A stretch of DNA of 19,127 nt from a virus. Position 1 is the stretch's first letter; each line of letters begins with the position of its first letter. This document shows positions 117 through 19,127 of the stretch, piece after piece. A program made the translations under genes and the position numbers. Under the pieces are notes generated by a model. It was not told the DNA's origin, did no database searches, and saw nothing but the letters and a program-made list of their open reading frames with translations. The stretch lies in the UHGV virus genome UHGV-0215688. One strand, written 5' to 3'.

Positions 117-566
117 TCAATAAGTTGGAGTCATTACCCAGAATTCTATGCTAACGCTCCATGAAGGATCATTTATCAAATGGAATGATAGAGGTGTCGA
201 GCCATGTATAAATGCCAAATTCGCAATCCAAGTCCTTATGCTAAAAACATAATCACCTGGCACATACCCCCCATTATGGCTATTTACACAGTAAATTATT
301 ACCATTATCGCTGATGATATGAAGGTAAGAGGCCACAGCCTCGCCAGTCTATTCAAGAAATATGACGGGATAGACGCCCCATTTCTTACAGAATGGGTAA
401 GCACAAATCCCGAAATGATGAAAAAATATGCAACAGCCAAGTGAGGGCCACTAAATGGCCCGTCATTTTTCCAACCAGTAACAGCATTGATGGCGTGATT
501 TAAAAGCACTACGCAAGCAAAAAGGCCGCGCAAACCATCAACAGCATAGAAGCGTTTAATTTCCAT
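117..566 (-). pseudogene. Acyltransferase family 3 (O-antigen/LPS acyltransferase-like), N-terminal fragment, truncated at 149 aa
   Basis: Translation carries the N-terminal hallmarks of acyltransferase-3 membrane enzymes: RFYAVDGLRGLFACVVLLNH, FFIISGFVL, NRLARLWPL, WSVSIEF. Full-length members are about 330+ aa; here the frame stops at 117 and all three minus frames hit stops shortly after. ATG at 564-566 has no Shine-Dalgarno. Gene is visibly AT-rich against the GC-rich phage backbone. Confidence 0.5.
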
Positions 567-853: not shown

Positions 854-1776
854 GCAAATTCCTCCACAAGACAAATACCATCAGCACCTTCACCACCATA
901 AAAACGCGTGGAGAAGACCTGCGTGTCATATGCGCCAGCGCCGCCGCCGCCAGGGACTAATGCTTTCGCAATTATCGGTGAAGATACAGTACACTGCCCC
1001 GCTCTTCGGCTGCCACCCCAAAAGCTTGAACCGCCGTACCCATTAAGGAATCTGGTATTACTTTGGCCATCTCCGCCATCTCCGCCGGCTAGATTTACAT
1101 CACCACCAGACCCGGCAACTCCAACGCCGCCTGATGCATATACAGTGGAAGCAGTGGACGGGTTTCCGCCTGTGGCAACCATCCCGCTAAATGTTGAGTT
1201 ACCGCCTTTTGTTGCCTCAGTGCCGCCGGCACCGATAACCACGGCAAAGTTTGTGATATCAGCCACGTTGAACCATTTGATACCTGTAGCGCCTGCAGCC
1301 CCCCCCGCACCGGAAAAGTTATCGGTTGGGGCACCACTATTAAAAGCGCCACCTCCGCCACCACCTCCTCCCGTTAGAGTTACTTTGATGCGCTTCGTCA
1401 GCGGGTTTAGCGTTACTGTTTTTGATGAGGTGATCCACTGCTCGGCAATCTTCCTACCTACGTATCCGTTGGTATCTCCCAAATCAAGGTTTGCGAGAGC
1501 CGTTTTCACCGTGCCATCCGATTTGATATCGCCAAACGGATTCTTGCGGCTTAACAGCAGAGCACGAAGCGCGGTAAGCAACTGGTCGTGCCGCGCCTTC
1601 TCCAGACTGGCACCAGATGCCTCAACAACGCTACAAAGTTCTTCCTGCAACATGTCAAAGTAGTCATCATCCAGATCGGTGGCAGGCGTGCCAGTCTGGG
1701 GGTTACCACGGGTAAAACCGTTCTTACCCGCGCCGAACTTATCCTTCTGCGCGGTTTTCGTGTCTATACGATGCAT
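850..1776 (-). CDS. Tail fibre protein with conserved N-terminal domain and glycine-rich C-terminal region
   Basis: 308 aa, last gene of the tail operon directly after the gp48-like gene. N-terminus [58 protein letters not shown] resembles side-tail-fibre N-termini of Mu/e14-type prophages, as recalled. C-terminal half is Gly-rich with an octa-glycine run. GGAG RBS 6 nt upstream of the ATG. Confidence 0.75.
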
Positions 1777-1779
1777 GGA

Positions 1780-2364
1780 TTACTCCGGATATTTAAAAAT
1801 TACGTAGGTATGCGACGGGCAGAGTTTGTTAAGCACACACTCGACAACGGTGTCGCCCCAGATACGCAGTGCGGAATCACAGGGATCGCCACATGTCATC
1901 CAGGTGGTGTTGGTGGTGGTTGGCATGTTGACATGCCAGTAATACCGCCATTCCGGCGCATTCACCGCGTCAGTACAGGCCGATGAGCAGGTGAACGTGC
2001 TTTTGTCGTATCGCGTGATGGTGGCATCTGGTCTGCCCAGGGCAGCAAGCTGTGCAAGATAAAAATCCTCGTTGATGCCGCCCGCCAGGTTAACCTTCGC
2101 ATCCAGCCGTTGCTGACGCTGGCGAAGGGTCTGCGTTCCCGCCGGAATACATTCATCCGGCAGACCGCACAGACGCTCCCAGCGGTTTATCAGTTCAGTG
2201 GTGGTGCGCGGATCCAGCTCCCGCATCAGGGCATCCGCACGCTGATGAACACGGGTTAATGACGGTGCCGCACCGGCAATCGCCGGATCGCTGGCTGACC
2301 ACGCCGGACCGGGCGGCAACAGTGCCGATAACAGGCGGATGTAATCATCGTTTGTCACGTCCAT
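1780..2364 (-). CDS. Mu gp48-like tail/baseplate protein (YmfQ/DUF2313-like)
   Basis: 194 aa, immediately between the baseplate J-like gene and the fibre gene, which is the gp48 position in Mu-like tail modules. Start overlaps the J stop by about 10 nt. Confidence 0.7.
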
Positions 2365-3413
2365 GAAATCGTCCCCAGTACCGCCAGTTCGTTTTTCGCA
2401 ATGGAGATATTGTCCACCGGTGCAAGCAACTGATGGCTGTATTCCCCGTTCGCACCGGAAATCGCCTCACTGATACGCGACACCTTCAGTTCTCCCTGCG
2501 GATAACCATCACGCAGCAGGAACGAACGCAACTCCGCGGTGATGGCAGCCCGTATTTCCGGTGTATCCGGCGTCACGCGGATATGAAAATCCACCGTATG
2601 TGCCACCGGCCTGAACACATACAAGTCAGAACCTGCCACCGGGGCCAGTGGCCCGATATGTTGTATTGCCGCCGTTTCCGTTGATTCTTCCGGAATGGGA
2701 TTAATCAGGTCACTGCTGGCAATCATCACACCGACAGTTCCCGTTCCCATCCAGTGACGGTATGTCCATGCGCGGGTAATGCCGGGCACTTCTTTAGCCC
2801 AGACGACATAGTCCCCGTCAGCCCCGCCCTGCGGCGTCCAGTAATACCGCTCAATGACGCGGGCGCGCCACGTTTCCAGATCTTCAGTATCGAATCCGCC
2901 AGTCAGGGTATCTGCAACACCGGAAGACGGCAGACCATTCACCGGCGTGACTAGGATTAATGCCGTACCGTCGTCAGCGTTACCGACCGCGCCTGCATTT
3001 GAGCAAGTGATCGGCACACGCAGGACACCACCGGAGCTGGTTGCATCGGCAGTTGCCGTGTACTGAACCAGGTCATCGCGCTGAATCACGCTCCCGGCAG
3101 TCACCTTCAGGCCATCGCTGACACCTTCCCAGCGCATATACCCGCTGGCAGCCGTGGCCCCCTTGCGCGGACACCGTTTCATCGCAGCATGTCGCGCCAG
3201 CCAGGACTCATCGCACAGGTCAGGCAGCATATTCATTGCCAGATAATCGATGTACCCGTAGACCGTATGCAGCGCCGCCGCATACACCTTTGCCCGCACG
3301 TCTTCATCCATGCGCCGGAGCGTGTTGCTGACGTCCAGCCTGGCGAATAAATCGTTACGGAGCATACTGATATTTTCTGCCAGCGTCGGGCGCTGAAATT
3401 CACTGTCCGCCAT
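2355..3413 (-). CDS. Baseplate J-like protein (Mu gp47-like)
   Basis: 352 aa; size and position between the gp46-like and gp48-like genes match the baseplate wedge J family. Start ATG at 3411-3413 overlaps the upstream stop. Confidence 0.8.
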
Positions 3414-5452: not shown

Positions 5453-6777
5453 TGCACTGGCACCTTCAGAGGGATCACCGGCACAAAGCCGGGATGCGTA
5501 ATGGCATTACGCCGGATAATGTCCGCGTCACGCGCCGCGTTATCAAACCAGGTCGCCGCCAGCACCAGCGCGGGTAAAACCTCATCCGGTGTGCGCTGAA
5601 TGATCCGTGCAGACTGTTCAAGGCGCGTGTTGATATCCGCATTCAGATCTGCTTTCACCCGGCGCAGCGCCAGAAACAGCGCATCACTGGTTGTACGGGA
5701 CAACTCCTTATCAATTGCCGTATTCAGTGTGTCGCGAATGTCAGTCAGTTCTTCCCACGTCGGCAGGTCAACCGTGTTTTTCACCGCCGGTGCATTGTTC
5801 AGTGCCGGATGCGTGACGGAAGGCCAGCCAGTGCTCTGCGCGGGTGTTGTTGCCTGCCCCACTGCGGCATTCTGCATCACCGCGGAAGTTGTTGGCGCAG
5901 GCAATCGGGTGACGGCATACGCCGCTTCGCTGATTGCGGTCGTACGAAGGGTGCTGGCAACCACGTTACGCTGCTGCGTCGCCGTGGCGGTGGTTTTACT
6001 GTCCGTTTTCCAGACGCCGCGCGGTTGCAGATCGCTGCCGAGGCTGACACCGGAAAGCGTTTTGATCATGGTGACCAGGTCGCTGGCGTTACCATAAAGG
6101 CGTTTCCCGGTACGCCACATTTTCTGCACCTGCTCAACGAAATTTTTGCCTGACGATGGCGGCGGCAGAAGTACCGAGATATCCCCCTGCAACAGCCTGG
6201 CGGCATCCGATACGGCAGAATCCACCACTTTCATCGCATCAGAAACATACCCCAGCATTATGCTGGCATTACCGATAACGTCGTTCTGCACGAAATCCGC
6301 AACACCATCGATACTGAAACCGCTGAAGCTGTCACTGATGCAGTCATCCAGTGCAGAACAGGATGACATCAGCGTCTGCGCCGTCGCCGCACCTGATGTG
6401 GGGTAAGAGAGTTCTCCTGCTTCGACAAACTTCAGGTCAAAGCGGACAATACGCCCTTCACTTTTCGATGTGCTGACCCGAACTTCCCCGTCAACACAGA
6501 CTTTCAGCTCACCATATGTCGGGTGGACAAGCGTGCCTGGACCGGGTTTATTCAGCGCGTCAATCAGGCGATCGCGCTGGTCAAAGCAGTCATCTCCCAC
6601 CACATAAGCTGTGATGGACGGGCGGAAAGTGATTTTCCCCAGGTCTTCGGTATAGGGTTTGTCGCGGTTTGGGTATTCATGCGTTTCAACCCGACGTCCT
6701 ACCGGGGCCCCTTCATCTTCTACCTTGAACGGAACGCCGCGAAACGACGCTTCAACCAGTCTGTCTTTCCACGCCAT
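5449..6777 (-). CDS. DNA circularization protein N-like tail protein (Mu gpN-like)
   Basis: N-terminal MAWKDRLVEASFRGVPFKVEDEG...HEYPNRDKPYTEDLGK resembles the Mu N N-terminal domain. Listed with the in-frame ATG at 6775-6777; the ORF track starts at an in-frame TTG at 6789. Sits directly downstream of the tape measure and moron in Mu-like order. Confidence 0.8.
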   Translation of the reverse strand: MAWKDRLVEASFRGVPFKVEDEGAPVGRRVETHEYPNRDKPYTEDLGKITFRPSITAYVVGDDCFDQRDRLIDALNKPGPGTLVHPTYGELKVCVDGEVRVSTSKSEGRIVRFDLKFVEAGELSYPTSGAATAQTLMSSCSALDDCISDSFSGFSIDGVADFVQNDVIGNASIMLGYVSDAMKVVDSAVSDAARLLQGDISVLLPPPSSGKNFVEQVQKMWRTGKRLYGNASDLVTMIKTLSGVSLGSDLQPRGVWKTDSKTTATATQQRNVVASTLRTTAISEAAYAVTRLPAPTTSAVMQNAAVGQATTPAQSTGWPSVTHPALNNAPAVKNTVDLPTWEELTDIRDTLNTAIDKELSRTTSDALFLALRRVKADLNADINTRLEQSARIIQRTPDEVLPALVLAATWFDNAARDADIIRRNAITHPGFVPVIPLKVPVQ

Positions 6778-6869: not shown

Positions 6870-7307
6870 ATGGAAATGTTTTTGCCGTTAATACTGGGTT
6901 TGTTGCTAGCCGTTTTCATAGGACGGTGGGCTTATAAAAAAGAAAAGACCAAGCCCAGAAAAATAATGGCTGCTCTTCTCGGTGCTGTTTTTGGATTCTT
7001 CGCACCACTGATAATCGCAGCGTTTGTTATGACTCCCCCAGAAAAAGAAAAAACTAAAGAGGAGCTTGTTATGGCAAAGCTCACACGCTCTTTGGATGGT
7101 TGTCCACTTGATATGAAAGATCGCGTGAAAGAATCAATGAATGATCCCGATAGTTTTGAATGTATCGAAACTAACGTTATACGTCGTAAAGATGATTACG
7201 TCATGATCATGCAGTTCCGTGGCAAAAACCAATTAGGGGGAATGGTTAAAAATGTCGCCAAGGCGGAATATGACTCAGAGGGAAATTTCGCAAGGTTCAT
7301 CAATTAA
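6870..7307 (+). CDS. Moron: 145-aa two-helix membrane protein with a roughly 90-aa C-terminal soluble domain (candidate superinfection exclusion protein)
   Basis: Only convincing plus-strand gene in the window. Strong RBS AAGGAGAGG 5 nt before the ATG. Two hydrophobic helices (about residues 3-19 and 33-54) separated by a Lys-rich loop YKKEKTKPRK, followed by a domain with two Cys. Strongly AT-rich against neighbours; hairpin immediately after the stop. Confidence 0.75.
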   Translation: MEMFLPLILGLLLAVFIGRWAYKKEKTKPRKIMAALLGAVFGFFAPLIIAAFVMTPPEKEKTKEELVMAKLTRSLDGCPLDMKDRVKESMNDPDSFECIETNVIRRKDDYVMIMQFRGKNQLGGMVKNVAKAEYDSEGNFARFIN

Positions 7308-14762: not shown

Positions 14763-15413
14763 TTAGAAGTTCAGATTTTTCAGTGCATTCAGTGCAGAGC
14801 TCACATCCTCAGCGTCGCGCAGGGACAGTGCGCCATAGCCCCCGGCCATGAATGCTTTGGCCTGGGTACGGGAGAGTCCGACATCACGCAGGACTCTTTC
14901 GATTTTTTTCTGTTCAGGGATTTCCCCGCGGGCCAGTGCGTTCTTGACGTCGCTGATCCGCGCCTCGTCGTTAGACGGAAACGTCACCAGACTGACTTCC
15001 CAGAGGTCGATTTCTTTCAGCAAAAAGGCTTCTTTGCTCCTGTCGTATTCCCAGTCTTTCAGGACGTACCCAATAGAAAGGCCGGTTAACGAACCGGCCT
15101 TCATGTGTGCATGTGCGCGTTTTGCGAGGGGATCATCATCAATAAGCAACCGTCCCCTGACGTAAAGCCCGACATCGTCTTCCTTCATTTCAGTGTAAAC
15201 ACCGATGGGTTCATCCATGCGGTGCTGCCAGAGCAGCGCAGGTAACGCTTTTCTGTCACTCCACGCCCGCAGGGAAGCAGCAAATGCCCCGGACATCACC
15301 ACATCATCGTGGCTGTCCTTTACACCAAAGACGGAGCCATACCCTTCAAACTCACCGGAGTCACTGACAGATTTCAGACTCAGCGGTACATCAAGACGTT
15401 GTTTCGTCTGCAT
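14763..15413 (-). CDS. Prohead maturation protease (HK97 family)
   Basis: Motif EFEGYGSVFGVKDSHDDVVMSGAFAASL matches the HK97 prohead protease signature. ORF track starts at 15449, but the ATG at 15411-15413 has an AAGGA RBS; overlaps the portal 3' end. Confidence 0.85.
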   Translation of the reverse strand: MQTKQRLDVPLSLKSVSDSGEFEGYGSVFGVKDSHDDVVMSGAFAASLRAWSDRKALPALLWQHRMDEPIGVYTEMKEDDVGLYVRGRLLIDDDPLAKRAHAHMKAGSLTGLSIGYVLKDWEYDRSKEAFLLKEIDLWEVSLVTFPSNDEARISDVKNALARGEIPEQKKIERVLRDVGLSRTQAKAFMAGGYGALSLRDAEDVSSALNALKNLNF

Positions 15414-16632
15414 TGGCGTTATCCTTCTGCTTACCGGCTTTACTGCCATCGGAGGGTTTCGTGGTCATGTTCATCGGTGTGAGATAGACATTCCCACCGG
15501 GACGCGGATTCATATCTTCCAGGTCGCGGCAGTCATTGGGAGAGTAAATTCCCCAGTTAATCCCGGTGGCGTAGGCTTCAAAACGGGACTTCATATCCCC
15601 GCGCAGTAACGCCCCGGCGTTAAATTTGGCGTAATAAACGCCCTGCTTACTTTTTCGTACCAGTCCGGTGTTGATCCGCTGTTCGATGCGGGTCAGATAC
15701 GGCACCAGTGAATAGTTGATAAATCCGAGCCCCAGTTCTTCGATATTGTTGAAGGTGGCGCGATCGGTGTTCTGCACCATGTGCAATGGCACCCGGAACA
15801 GACGACAGATTTCTTCAAGCTGAAACTTGCGGGTTTCCAGGAACTGGCTGTCCTCTGCGTTCAACGCCATCGACTTCCAGTCCAGCCCCATCTCAAGGAT
15901 CATCGGGCGGTGAGCATTGCCAAGCCCGGTGTGACGCTCCTCAAAATCTTTCTTCAGGCGCTCATAAGCCTGATCCGACAGCGTCTGCTCTGTACGCAAC
16001 ACACCCGACGTCACCGCGCCATTGCTGAACAGTCTGGCCCCGTGCTCTTCGGTCGCTGCCGCCAGCGATATTGCCTCGCGGGCATAGGCGATGGGATTCA
16101 GTCCCACCAGACCGTCCAGCGTCAGCGTGCGCACATGCCAGATATCTTCCTGGCTCAGTACATCCGTGGAGCCGTCCGGAAATGTGACCTGGTAAACCGG
16201 TTCCCAGCTACTGTTAAGCTTCGGTACCACACAACCGGGATCGACGGGCAGCAGTTCAGCCACTTCGCCAAATGCTTTCACTTTGTAGGCGTAAAAATTT
16301 CCCCGCAGGCACAGACAGGTGACCACCAGCTCCCAGAACTCCTGCGGCGTCATATAGCTATTGGGATGCGTGGAGATCAGTTTATGCAGACGTTCGCCGG
16401 TGGCTCTCTGCTTCAGGCTGCCGTTCAGGTGATACAGATTGCAGGGCAACATCCCGACCGACTCTGCCAGCACTCTGACGCAGGAAAAAACCGCCGTCAG
16501 TCGCATGGCTCGCTGACTGCTGATCTGCTTTCCGGTATAGGTGTCGTAGGACAACCCGATGGCATCCGCCAGCTCTGCTGACGTGGTCACCGGTGCGTCA
16601 CTTTTTCGTTGAAATAATCCCGAAAAGAACAC
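15391..16632 (-). CDS. Portal protein (HK97 family)
   Basis: 413 aa between large terminase and protease. GTG start at 16630-16632 preceded by GGAGGT and overlapping the stop of the small membrane ORF by 1 nt. Confidence 0.9.
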   Translation of the reverse strand: MFFSGLFQRKSDAPVTTSAELADAIGLSYDTYTGKQISSQRAMRLTAVFSCVRVLAESVGMLPCNLYHLNGSLKQRATGERLHKLISTHPNSYMTPQEFWELVVTCLCLRGNFYAYKVKAFGEVAELLPVDPGCVVPKLNSSWEPVYQVTFPDGSTDVLSQEDIWHVRTLTLDGLVGLNPIAYAREAISLAAATEEHGARLFSNGAVTSGVLRTEQTLSDQAYERLKKDFEERHTGLGNAHRPMILEMGLDWKSMALNAEDSQFLETRKFQLEEICRLFRVPLHMVQNTDRATFNNIEELGLGFINYSLVPYLTRIEQRINTGLVRKSKQGVYYAKFNAGALLRGDMKSRFEAYATGINWGIYSPNDCRDLEDMNPRPGGNVYLTPMNMTTKPSDGSKAGKQKDNANADETTS

Positions 16633-16814
16633 TATTTACCTCCACCAACAGACAGCTGTGTACGGTCGAGATATCGCGCCACCAGCCACGACCAGAACAG
16701 GCACAACGCCCCGGCAACAACAAACCCCGCCGGGGGATAAATCAGCCAAGCACCATACGCCAGCAAAAGCGCCCCCAGCACGCCCACCAGAGGCGCGAGA
16801 ATCAGCATGATCAT
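16632..16814 (-). CDS. Small two-helix membrane protein (60 aa) within the packaging module
   Basis: [60 protein letters not shown]: two hydrophobic helices. GAGGT RBS; its TAG shares a nucleotide with the portal GTG start. GC-rich like the backbone. Confidence 0.55.
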
Positions 16815-16825
16815 AATTACCTCAG

Positions 16826-18559
16826 TTAAAGCGAGCGGATCCCATAGGACTCAATGTGGTCAGACAGCGTGTCTTCTTTCTCGTACAGCATGGCTCTGCC
16901 AACCGCCATAATCAGCGCAACTGCACCGTCAATTTTGTTTTCCGCCTGCTCTTTGACGGGCTTCACCACATCATCGTTACCCGGAATGGTTTTGCCGACC
17001 ACGTTGCCGATACACCAGGTCATGATGGGATTGCCATCATGATGAAAGCGCCCCGATTCAATTGCCGCTTCCAGCTCTTTCATCGGGTCGGACATGTTGG
17101 TGTAGTTCTGAATGATAGTGATGGGGTTCAGGTCTTCATCAGCAAGGTCATGTGACAACCCGGTCGCCCCGAAGGGGTCGATGGGTGACTCACTGACCGG
17201 ACTGATTTTGTTCGCCGCTTTGGCCTCCTCGAGGATGTAGCGATAATCCACCTCCGCACCATCGGTAACGGTCAGAACGCCCATTTCCACCCATTTCTGA
17301 AAGCGTTCGGCTGTCCGTCGATCTTCATTTTTCTCGACGCTGTACACCGTGTCATACGGTACCCAGAAACGCGGGGCCACACTGTAGTAATGCGTTTTAC
17401 CGTCAATCTCGCGGGTATAAAGTCGCGCCATACTGTTCATATCCAGTTTACGCGCCAGGTCAAAGGCCAGAATGCATGGCTGCCCCTCGAACTGCTCAAG
17501 GGTCAGTGATTTATCCTCGCAACTCTGCCAGCTCACCAGGTTGAAATACGCCGAACGCGCCGACACCCAGATATTGAGGTGTTTTGTTTTAAAGACGTTT
17601 GCCAGACGGGCGTTATTTTTCGCACGCTGCTGCTGACTTAACAAAAATTCGCGATAAACCGACACACCAATATTTGGATTGGCTTTTTCCAGCACCTGCG
17701 GGTCGGTCCAGTCGTCACCTTCATCAACGGTATAGATGATCCCGAACAGTTCATCGTTAGGCACCGAGCCGTTGAGCATCTCGATGACTTCCCGCCGTTT
17801 GTCGTAGCACGGCCCCTCAATGTTGTACCCGGCGGTAGTGATAGCCCACATCAGTGGCTGACGTCGCGCCCCCATCCCGGTAAGCATCGTGGTGTAAAGC
17901 GCATCGGTGGCGTGCTCGTGATATTCATCCACCACCGCACAGTGGGGTGATGAACCATCACCGGGGTTACCGATCAGCGGTTCAAAACGCGCACCATCCT
18001 CCTGACGGTTCATGTTTGAGGCGTTAACCTCAATCCCGAACGCTTCCATCAGCATGGGTGTGCGTTTACACATCAGTCTTGCCGGACGAAAGACTTCCCA
18101 TGCCTGTTTCTCCGTCGTGGCACCGGAATACACTTCCGCGCCGAACTCGTTATCACAGGCAAAACAATACAGGGCGACACCGGCAGAGATTGCCGATTTG
18201 CCGTTCTTACGGGGGATTTCGGTATACACCTCACGGAAGCGGCGCAGCCGGGTACCTTTATTGACCCAGCCAAACGCGCAGCAGATCACAAAGAGCTGCC
18301 ACGGCTCCAGCGTGATGGGCATCCTCTTAAATGCCCACTCACCCTTGGTGTGCGGCAACAGCTGAATAAATTTGGCGGCCCGTTCAGCCAGGTCCTTGTC
18401 GAAGCGGTAACGAAACGACTTATTTTTTTCCGCCATCAGGTCATCAAGATGGCGCTGGCAGGCCTGAATCACAAACTGGCAGGCCACAATCTTTCCGCGC
18501 ACGACATCCCGGGCATACTGATTGGCAGCATTTACGTTGGGGTAAGATTTCCGGCTCAT
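16826..18559 (-). CDS. Terminase large subunit
   Basis: 577 aa with Walker A-like PRKNGKS in the N-terminal ATPase region and a C-terminal nuclease-type region; ATG overlaps the small-subunit TGA (ATGA). Confidence 0.95.
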
Positions 18560-19050
18560 GATTCGATGATTTTCAGAAACGGGTTAGTGGCTTTCTTCTT
18601 CCCCGCCAGGCCAATCAGACGCTGGCGGCTGCTGGGGTCGAGTCCGAGCATTGCCCCCGTACTGCTCATCTCGGACTCCTGTTCTTTTTTGGCGGTCAGC
18701 TCCGGATTTTTGACCATACCGCCCATTGCACCGGTGATGGTATTGCCCTGTCTGGCAATATTTTTCACGGCACGTCGCCAGAACTCGTAGGCCACGCACC
18801 ACCGCTCAAGCACCGCGAGGTCAGTCACGCACAGCAGGCCCTGACCGCAGAGTTCTTTAGTTGTCAGTTGCCACATGATCGTAGCGAGAGGGAGATCTTC
18901 TTCAGCGAACCACTCCGGTGGCTCAACACCTTTGATGGGCGTAAAAACAGGTTCATCTTTGTTCAGGGCTCGCTTGCCGGGGTTTCCGGCCAGCGCCTTG
19001 CGCGCCGTTGGCTTGGGGCGACGCCCGGAACGCCCCGCCGTTCCAGCCAT
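18556..19050 (-). CDS. Terminase small subunit (P27 family)
   Basis: [34 protein letters not shown] matches the P27-family N-terminal signature. Listed from the ATG at 19048-19050 (AGGAG 8 nt upstream); the ORF track starts at an upstream in-frame GTG at 19059. Confidence 0.85.
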
Positions 19051-19127
19051 ATGCGGCACTCCTGGTTAAATTTCATTTTTCGCGGGTATAAAAAAACGAT
19101 GGGGCGGGCAGTCCGGAAGACGTCAGG

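Follow-up and report, generated by a model that had tools for sequence, protein, structure and literature searches.

The closest known counterpart of the gene considered here is ymfR of Escherichia coli K-12 (b1150), a gene of the cryptic prophage e14 whose product is named in RefSeq as the 'IPR020297 domain-containing protein YmfR'. Equivalents are known from phages SfI (gp03), ST64B (Sb3) and phiP27 (a 'putative integral membrane protein'). Our literature search for a function of YmfR returned gene lists, the use of the gene as an integration site, a table of SOS transcripts and a first-round screen of ASKA clones; no functional study was among these, and no structure or proteome report on the protein was found. 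The gene is lost along with e14 when that prophage is deleted. Replacement of ymfR in K-12 gives no phenotype and the locus serves as a neutral integration site (PMC9145139), and an SOS-inducing compound raises ymfR mRNA by about log2 4.5, together with the mRNA of other genes of e14 (PMC10012262).

The window analyzed here is a stretch of 19,127 nucleotides from the virus genome UHGV-0215688, in which a short ORF on the minus strand separates the genes for the large terminase (TerL) and the portal. The initial annotation had singled out this ORF as encoding an unusual two-helix membrane protein coupled between the two. The relevant features, listed from upstream to downstream, are the following:

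18556..19059, minus strand: small terminase gene (PF05119), on the upstream side
16826..18559, minus strand: TerL, the large terminase (PF03354 and PF20441), the usual but not obligatory upstream neighbor of ymfR
16820..16823, minus strand: Shine–Dalgarno sequence GAGG of ymfR, 3 nt past the TerL stop and 5 nt ahead of the ATG, read from the sequence
16632..16814, minus strand: ymfR coding sequence, 60 codons plus TAG (98% identity to K-12 YmfR; PHROG 502, E = 1.5e-27; identical boundaries in RefSeq)
16740..16811, minus strand: predicted transmembrane helix 1, residues 2–25, Gly/Ala-rich and ending in the conserved YGAWLIY (AlphaFold2 and conservation)
16731..16739, minus strand: predicted tight turn Y-P-P, residues 26–28, at the center of a 12-residue family motif and predicted to be periplasmic
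16659..16730, minus strand: predicted helix 2, residues 29–52, with a hydrophobic core at 31–46 followed by R47 and R51 (AlphaFold2)
16635..16658, minus strand: C-terminal tail, residues 53–60, variable and predicted to be cytoplasmic, with only the terminal GG[K/E/D] conserved
16639..16643, minus strand: Shine–Dalgarno sequence GGAGG of the portal gene, within ymfR codons 58–59 and 6 nt ahead of the portal GTG
16630..16634, minus strand: TAGTG stop/start junction, in which the last base of the ymfR TAG is the first G of the portal GTG (16632)
15391..16632, minus strand: HK97-family portal gene (PF04860, E = 1.5e-108), the constant downstream partner of ymfR

The ORF in the window is ymfR itself, a named gene that has already been catalogued, and there is nothing new at the locus. 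Its product shares 59/60 residues (98%) with K-12 YmfR, the sole difference being S54 in K-12 versus L54 in the window, at a polymorphic position in the tail; six alleles of this codon occur in close relatives, a diversity like that of other polymorphic sites, and codon 54 was not considered further. The description of the ORF as unusual does not hold, given that the gene has a name, that its product matches PHROG 502 ('membrane protein') over residues 1–55 and that the 701-bp ymfR junction is present in 1593 of 5426 complete E. coli genomes, under the RefSeq label 'ymfR: protein YmfR'. In an E. coli locus that is 99.9% identical to the window, RefSeq/PGAP sets identical boundaries, with the portal beginning on the last base of ymfR, and phages SfI, SfII, ST64B, phiP27 and 118970_sal3 carry ymfR at 86–98% DNA identity, labeled '(putative integral) membrane protein'. 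The e14 gene is found in the corresponding place, flanked by what is left of the terminase (aaaE/ymfN) and of the portal gene (beeE), and has the same one-base junction; in the window, by contrast, the flanking TerL and portal genes are both intact. Searches of Pfam and NCBIfam gave no family above threshold for YmfR (the best Pfam match was only TctB, at E = 0.072), and a sequence search of the PDB matched no solved structure.

Downstream of the window portal lie genes for a prohead protease of the S78 type and for a major capsid protein of the HK97 type. The remainder of the window makes up a Mu/SfV-like module for a contractile tail, with genes for the adaptor, head closure and neck, for the sheath, tube and tape measure, for a DNA-circulation protein and for the hub, wedge and fiber of the baseplate. 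Because terminase, portal and capsid genes occur together with this tail module, we read the window as the operon for late morphogenesis in a prophage of the SfI/SfII/ST64B/e14 type, for which the locus is ordinary. The GC content of ymfR is 0.59 and its GC3 of 0.656 matches that of TerL (0.64) and of the portal gene (0.664); there is no promoter-like site within approximately 500 nt upstream of it, and shuffled sequence yields equal numbers of promoter and terminator sites. On account of this matching composition and the lack of a promoter-like site, ymfR is a native gene of the late operon without its own promoter and not a moron; indeed, none of the marks of a moron (own promoter, terminator, deviating composition) is found in it. 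A terminator-like hairpin inside ymfR (16796..16769) was discarded as being at chance level, with 6 such hairpins found versus 4.0 ± 2.0 expected. The window does contain a true moron for contrast, at 6870..7307, with a GC content of 0.41.

The details of the ORF given in the initial annotation are borne out. Its coordinates are exact, on the minus strand, from an ATG that lies 11 nt from the end of TerL to the TAG; the ribosome-binding site ascribed to it is present as the GAGG; its stop does share a nucleotide, base 16632, with the portal GTG; its GC-rich, native look agrees with the values above; and its product, a hydrophobic protein of 60 amino acids, is also predicted here to have two helices. 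AlphaFold2, given an alignment of 40 sequences, places these helices at residues 2–25 and 29–52, separated by a turn at 26–28 and followed by a disordered tail, with a mean pLDDT of 76. Across 262 family members the four-residue loop is nearly uncharged (K+R 0.04, D+E 0.04), and the values for basic residues are 0.71 in the N-flank, 0.93 at the end of helix 2 and 1.73 in the C-flank. According to the positive-inside rule, which is well established, this charge distribution leads us to predict that YmfR is an inner-membrane hairpin with both termini in the cytoplasm and the YPPAG turn in the periplasm.

Several observations bear on whether ymfR is a gene at all. The 60-codon ORF is intact in 80/80 of the closest viral contigs (those with a portal at least 99% identical), and its offset is unchanged wherever the full flank is present. 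Against homologues in Klebsiella, Kluyvera, Mangrovibacter, Serratia and related enterobacterial sequences, pN/pS is 0.24–0.35, from synonymous values of 0.50–0.70 that are near saturation and nonsynonymous values of 0.15–0.22. When pooled over 41 DNA variants, pN/pS is 0.27 for codons 1–49 and 0.63 for tail codons 50–60. As judged from these comparisons of sequence, ymfR is a real protein-coding gene under purifying selection.

To follow the gene beyond close relatives, we used a back-translated search for its motif, which returned 32 viral contigs and 19 genome stretches holding 20 sites. The genomes are those of Mangrovibacter, Serratia, Klebsiella, Symbiopectobacterium, Marinobacter, Lysobacterales and three 'Ruminococcaceae' MAGs and, among the alpha-proteobacteria, Reyranella, Shinella, Kaistia, Sulfitobacter and Rhodospirillales. 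In 50/50 loci with enough flank (31 viral, 19 genomic), the motif has a portal homologue immediately downstream. TerL is mostly directly upstream; in loci L005, L011, L027, L032 and L052 some 0.4–1.4 kb of other DNA intervenes and the portal is still adjacent, and in many motif-bearing loci TerL is only distantly related (E ~1e-9). Since adjacency to the portal holds even where TerL is distant in position or in sequence, the constant partner of the small ORF is the portal. Two further homologues, with neighbors labeled by Pfam, lie in the order HNH, TerS, TerL, small ORF, Phage_portal, S49 protease and capsid, and the gene therefore persists when the type of protease changes.

The junction itself is similarly regular. 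Among 48 junctions measured, 39 have a one-base overlap (TGATG or TAGTG), and the other nine comprise a 3-nt gap (four), a 23-nt overlap (three), a 4-nt overlap (one) and a 29-nt gap (one). Purine-rich sequences resembling a Shine–Dalgarno site occur at the matching place in most homologous junctions, and the C-terminal variants of the protein (GG[K/E/D], EG[D/N] or similar) coincide with the purine-rich Shine–Dalgarno sequence of the portal gene. We also considered whether portals accompanied by the small gene have a distinctive N-terminus, but the hydrophobic MFFxGLF/MxGLFG start is found in modules with and without the small gene and hence is no mark of a partnership.

How general this arrangement is was assessed by inspecting the junction in 20 phages, drawn from across the full ranking of the 1485 phage records that contain a portal homologue. 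A short hairpin ORF precedes the portal in 10/20 of these HK97-type modules, at odds with the premise of the initial annotation that such modules canonically run from terminase to portal with nothing between. It is present in SfV (53 aa, unannotated), Ralstonia YO187_2, Vibrio K231, Vibrio pVa-3, Pseudomonas phPA-G (where the end of the record cuts it), Klebsiella Kpn74 (in a frameshifted record), Bacillus phiCM3 (unannotated), Bacillus phi105, Parageobacillus NIIg3.2 (gp03) and Clostridium phiCT453B (unannotated). It is absent, with TerL abutting the portal gene, from the HK97 relative Fraca and from pAN, vB_PR5, Psp6, CF127a, WBeta, Mcat11 and two gut phages, and absent also from Javan57, whose TerL and portal genes are separated by a phd/doc pair and one other gene. 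Outside this sample, PY54 has an unannotated YmfR homologue of 65 aa with a TGATG junction. The hairpin gene is thus common yet poorly annotated; because about half of the related modules lack it, it is dispensable for the HK97 design as such. The records in which it goes unannotated include those of SfV, SfIV, PY54, phiCM3 and phiCT453B, and for SfI, SfV and phiCM3 the start codon annotated for the portal gene seems to be wrongly placed.

When 1.84 billion representative proteins were searched with a profile, 369 clusters (50% identity, E ≤ 1e-3) of YmfR-like proteins were recovered, nearly all of 45–90 aa, and a second search recovered 974 clusters at 90% identity. The conserved core of the family is a stretch of 17 residues that runs from the last part of helix 1 through the turn into the first part of helix 2. 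Because composition can inflate the scores of short hydrophobic proteins, we treated synteny as independent evidence. Among the matches listed there are tandem-duplicated, four-helix versions (P0155, P0165, P0175 and P0233), which hint at a dimeric or oligomeric unit; these duplications of the hairpin were the only such rearrangements, with no fusion of a hairpin to portal or TerL among the matches listed.

The hairpins ahead of the portal in other phages can be related to YmfR by profile comparison. PHROG scans placed them in PHROGs 7105 (SfV, Ralstonia YO187_2), 4810 (Vibrio pVa-3) and 1142 (Bacillus phi105 and phiCM3, Parageobacillus NIIg3.2 gp03, Clostridium phiCT453B), with cross-hits to 502, and hhalign aligned the YmfR family to the SfV/Ralstonia/Vibrio type with a probability of 96.7% (E = 3e-10) and to the Gram-positive (Bacillus/Clostridium) type with a probability of 82.7% (E = 1e-5). 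These hairpins match YmfR in where they lie, in size and in having two helices, helix 1 often opening with an acidic residue and then a conserved Gly, and in a basic C-terminus; they differ from it in their low identity and in lacking the 12-residue core, which is limited to the YmfR branch. We accordingly recognize, at the level of profiles, a YmfR superfamily consisting of PHROGs 502, 7105 and 4810 and probably also 1142, with the caveat that the homology of the Gram-positive branch is probable and is read from scores that composition inflates in hydrophobic peptides. Weak matches of the Gram-positive members to DUF1056 and NfeD_membrane were below threshold and were not relied upon. The members of the superfamily are widespread hairpin proteins of 50–75 residues. 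Of the possibilities offered in the initial annotation, that of a conserved orphan therefore fares best, the family being retained from E. coli to phages of alpha-proteobacteria and probably of Firmicutes, and the conservation that it suggested looking for is present in these far homologues as in the close contigs.

What makes ymfR noteworthy is this generality: a tiny gene for a predicted membrane hairpin holds a fixed place, joined stop to start with the portal gene, in very distant HK97-type phages. We tentatively hypothesize that YmfR is an accessory head-morphogenesis factor that acts with the portal at the cytoplasmic membrane by way of coupled translation, a reading that we consider possible but would not yet expect to prove correct. 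An assembly role is favored because the link to the portal is invariant across types of TerL, protease and tail and across host phyla, and because the stop/start junction is fixed. Under this hypothesis, ribosomes that complete the YmfR hairpin would re-initiate on the portal gene; the hairpin would be inserted co-translationally, tethering the translating late mRNA to the membrane; and since the hairpin would enter the membrane during its synthesis, the portal would be made at or near the membrane, where the hairpin, probably as an oligomer, may help the portal ring to form or the procapsid to nucleate. If YmfR does act with the portal, it would bear on the nucleation of portal-containing procapsids in the HK97 lineage.

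Parts of the evidence run against an assembly role. Sequence conservation peaks within the membrane and at the predicted periplasmic turn, and the tail, the one segment predicted to be cytoplasmic, is short and variable, a pattern that fits poorly with a specific contact to the portal on the cytoplasmic side. The 10/20 sampled HK97-type modules that do without the gene include that of the HK97-like Fraca, and we know of no requirement for a membrane in the assembly of HK97-type procapsids. The stop/start overlap taken alone is weak evidence, since tight packing of genes is general in this operon, and the conserved gene order could partly reflect inheritance of the genes as a block.

The alternative that survives best, although we regard it as unlikely, is that YmfR is a holin-like or lysis-timing protein, a late hairpin that permeabilizes or depolarizes the inner membrane or modulates the true holin and so ties lysis to the completion of packaging. 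Class II holins and pinholins, such as S68 of phage 21, are late proteins of approximately 60–70 residues that have two transmembrane helices and both ends in the cytoplasm. YmfR, itself expressed late, resembles them in size and, by prediction, in its two helices and N-in/C-in topology, and its Gly/Ala-rich first helix and basic C-terminus add to the likeness. However, YmfR is not encoded as part of a lysis cassette, Pfam gave no match to it among holins or any other families, and its place beside the portal rather than the endolysin is conserved across phyla. SfI, moreover, has a canonical holin of its own: the SfI homologue of ymfR lies downstream of Q, S, R, Rz and TerS, and the complete S/R/Rz cassette is found elsewhere, about 2.4 kb upstream of ymfR in the late operon, across the ends of the linear record. 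The published observation closest to this function is that an IPTG-induced ymfR ASKA clone released D-alanine in the first round of a screen whose authors suggested that some positives of that round could stem from growth inhibition or lysis; yet this release was common to 65/392 membrane-protein clones, and the ymfR signal was gone in round two (PMC10299036). The holin-like function suggested in the initial annotation has thus gained no support and is weakened.

Somewhat less probable still is a second suggestion of the initial annotation, that YmfR is a superinfection-exclusion or injection-blocking peptide which shields an infected or induced cell from the entry of further phage DNA. Small inner-membrane proteins of phages often have this function (HK97 gp15 and T4 Imm are examples), and the conserved intramembrane and periplasmic face of YmfR could touch a host membrane protein. 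Against this, a gene with neither its own promoter nor moron-like composition is not expected to be expressed from a repressed prophage, and exclusion genes are not normally fixed beside one structural gene. The spread of the motif, which reaches from Enterobacterales to alpha-proteobacteria and probably to Firmicutes, speaks against a host-specific target, and among the PADLOC defense models 0 families matched YmfR at E ≤ 0.1. The suggestion has therefore also lost ground, with no promoter, functional-looking terminator or shift in GC in its favor.

It is comparably improbable, in our estimation, that the ORF is a translational-coupling leader, whose translation feeds the portal start and sets portal dosage and whose peptide is incidental. 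The one-base overlap in 39/48 junctions, the portal Shine–Dalgarno sequence within the last codons, the weak GTG with which the portal starts in the window and a C-terminal GG[K/E/D] that looks dictated by the Shine–Dalgarno sequence are all what such a leader would show. An incidental peptide, however, would not retain a hairpin and the 12-residue core over 369 clusters, nor the pN/pS near 0.27 in codons 1–49, and half of the related modules express their portal without any small ORF. That YmfR is instead a virion-associated hydrophobic protein, located at the portal vertex and ejected to aid the passage of DNA across the inner membrane of the next host, is very improbable: it is co-expressed with the portal, and the small membrane proteins P20 and P22 of PRD1 do organize a packaging vertex (PMC5850374), but HK97-head tailed phages have no internal membrane, our literature search found no structure or proteome report on it, and a hairpin of 60 residues that is nearly all hydrophobic would not readily stay soluble inside a capsid.

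Returning to the hypothesis of an assembly factor, its extension to the entire superfamily would make the YmfR-like hairpins an unrecognized class of membrane-embedded portal partners, carried by about half of HK97-type phages in both Gram-negative and Gram-positive hosts, that, by inserting into the membrane during translation and through later re-initiation on the portal gene, site portal synthesis and procapsid nucleation at the cytoplasmic membrane. We hold this broader proposal to be rather doubtful.

Among known systems, one with which some records equate YmfR is gpW of phage lambda, which is likewise encoded by a small gene between large terminase and portal. gpW is a soluble head-completion protein, whereas YmfR is a predicted membrane hairpin and has no Pfam match to gpW or to any other family. 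Several newer records nevertheless call ymfR homologues 'head-tail joining protein W', a label that is positional and wrong and should be dropped; a gpW sequence also scored below zero against the YmfR family profile, although this is a weak control.

Two further systems can be set beside the role proposed here. To our knowledge, gene 40 of phage T4 is not adjacent to gene 20, unlike ymfR and the portal gene, and T4 differs from the YmfR phages in portal family and head design. In PRD1, P20 and P22, which are small proteins integral to the membrane, organize the packaging and portal machinery (PMC5850374), but PRD1 has an internal viral membrane and belongs to another lineage. T4 prohead assembly begins at the membrane-attached gp20 portal, which in turn depends on gp40 (PMC9958956); like YmfR in the role that we infer for it by analogy, gp40 is a factor of the phage linked with assembly of the portal at the inner membrane. 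Were the broader proposal true, the principle seen in T4 gp40 and gp20 would extend to the largest group of tailed phages.

The small hydrophobic hairpin ORF that lies directly 5' of the HK97-family portal gene, represented in the window by ymfR, is frequently missing from or misnamed in public records. It is unannotated upstream of the portal gene in SfIV and likewise at the following positions in four further phages (locus coordinates):

1347..1508, hairpin ORF of SfV
2295..2492, hairpin ORF of PY54
1248..1409, hairpin ORF of phiCM3
1184..1375, hairpin ORF of phiCT453B

In SfV (locus position 1450), phiCM3 (locus position 1603) and SfI (2595), the portal start as annotated also looks misplaced when set against the conserved portal N-terminus, which begins at or near the stop codon of the small ORF. 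In the phage records ON470603.1, ON470584.1, ON470580.1 and PQ793804.1, the YmfR homologue carries the label "head-tail joining protein W", which we reject as a positional transfer from lambda without sequence support.

Comparison of portal N-termini (the window from 16632 downwards, together with loci L003-L053 and L134-L153) revealed that HK97-family portals of even very distant phages start with a short motif, hydrophobic or aromatic in character, after which come basic residues (for example MFFSGLFQRK, MAGLFGSLASGLRRR, MIFRQLFRNQ and MGILKGLFRTRD), and that this motif occurs both with and without the hairpin gene. The hairpin–portal pair is itself present twice in a metagenome-assembled genome of Reyranella sp.: in the oriented locus, the hairpin ORF occurs at about 1506..1790 and again, some 4.6 kb away, at about 6111..6383, and a portal homologue follows each copy. 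This arrangement suggests that prophage or GTA-like head modules lie in tandem or nested there.

In modules with an S49/ClpP-type protease, the prohead protease matches the Pfam family NfeD1b_N (loci L157, L158 and L160 and several phage records), and the phiCT453B hairpin ORF has a sub-threshold match to NfeD_membrane; the tie between these modules and membrane-anchored NfeD proteases may be coincidental. Within ymfR itself, codons 7-19 contain a site flagged as terminator-like:

16769..16796, minus strand, 12-bp GC-rich stem followed by TTTTGCTGG

The regional count of such sites around ymfR did not exceed that of shuffled controls.

Two further ORFs in the window both have a GC content of 0.41:

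117..566, minus strand, 149-aa ORF with a partial Acyl_transf_3 profile match (PHROG 3333, O-acetyltransferase)
6870..7307, plus strand, 145-aa ORF, the sole plus-strand gene within the minus-strand tail operon

The match of the former stops after roughly the first 135 of the profile's 326 positions, and the ORF probably represents a truncated conversion gene, of the O-antigen acetyltransferase type, near the end of the prophage. The latter, flanked by the tape measure gene on one side and the DNA-circulation/baseplate hub genes on the other, looks like a classic moron (an independently expressed lysogenic-conversion gene) for a membrane protein: its GC content compares with 0.54 for the window, its ribosome-binding site is strong, a GC-rich hairpin directly follows its stop codon, and its product combines two hydrophobic stretches at the N-terminal end with a C-terminal part that is soluble. 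The product has no Pfam match and only weak PHROG and PADLOC matches. In SfI, the same junction between the tape measure and DNA-circulation genes is only a 46-nt gap, whereas in the window it is occupied by this plus-strand gene.
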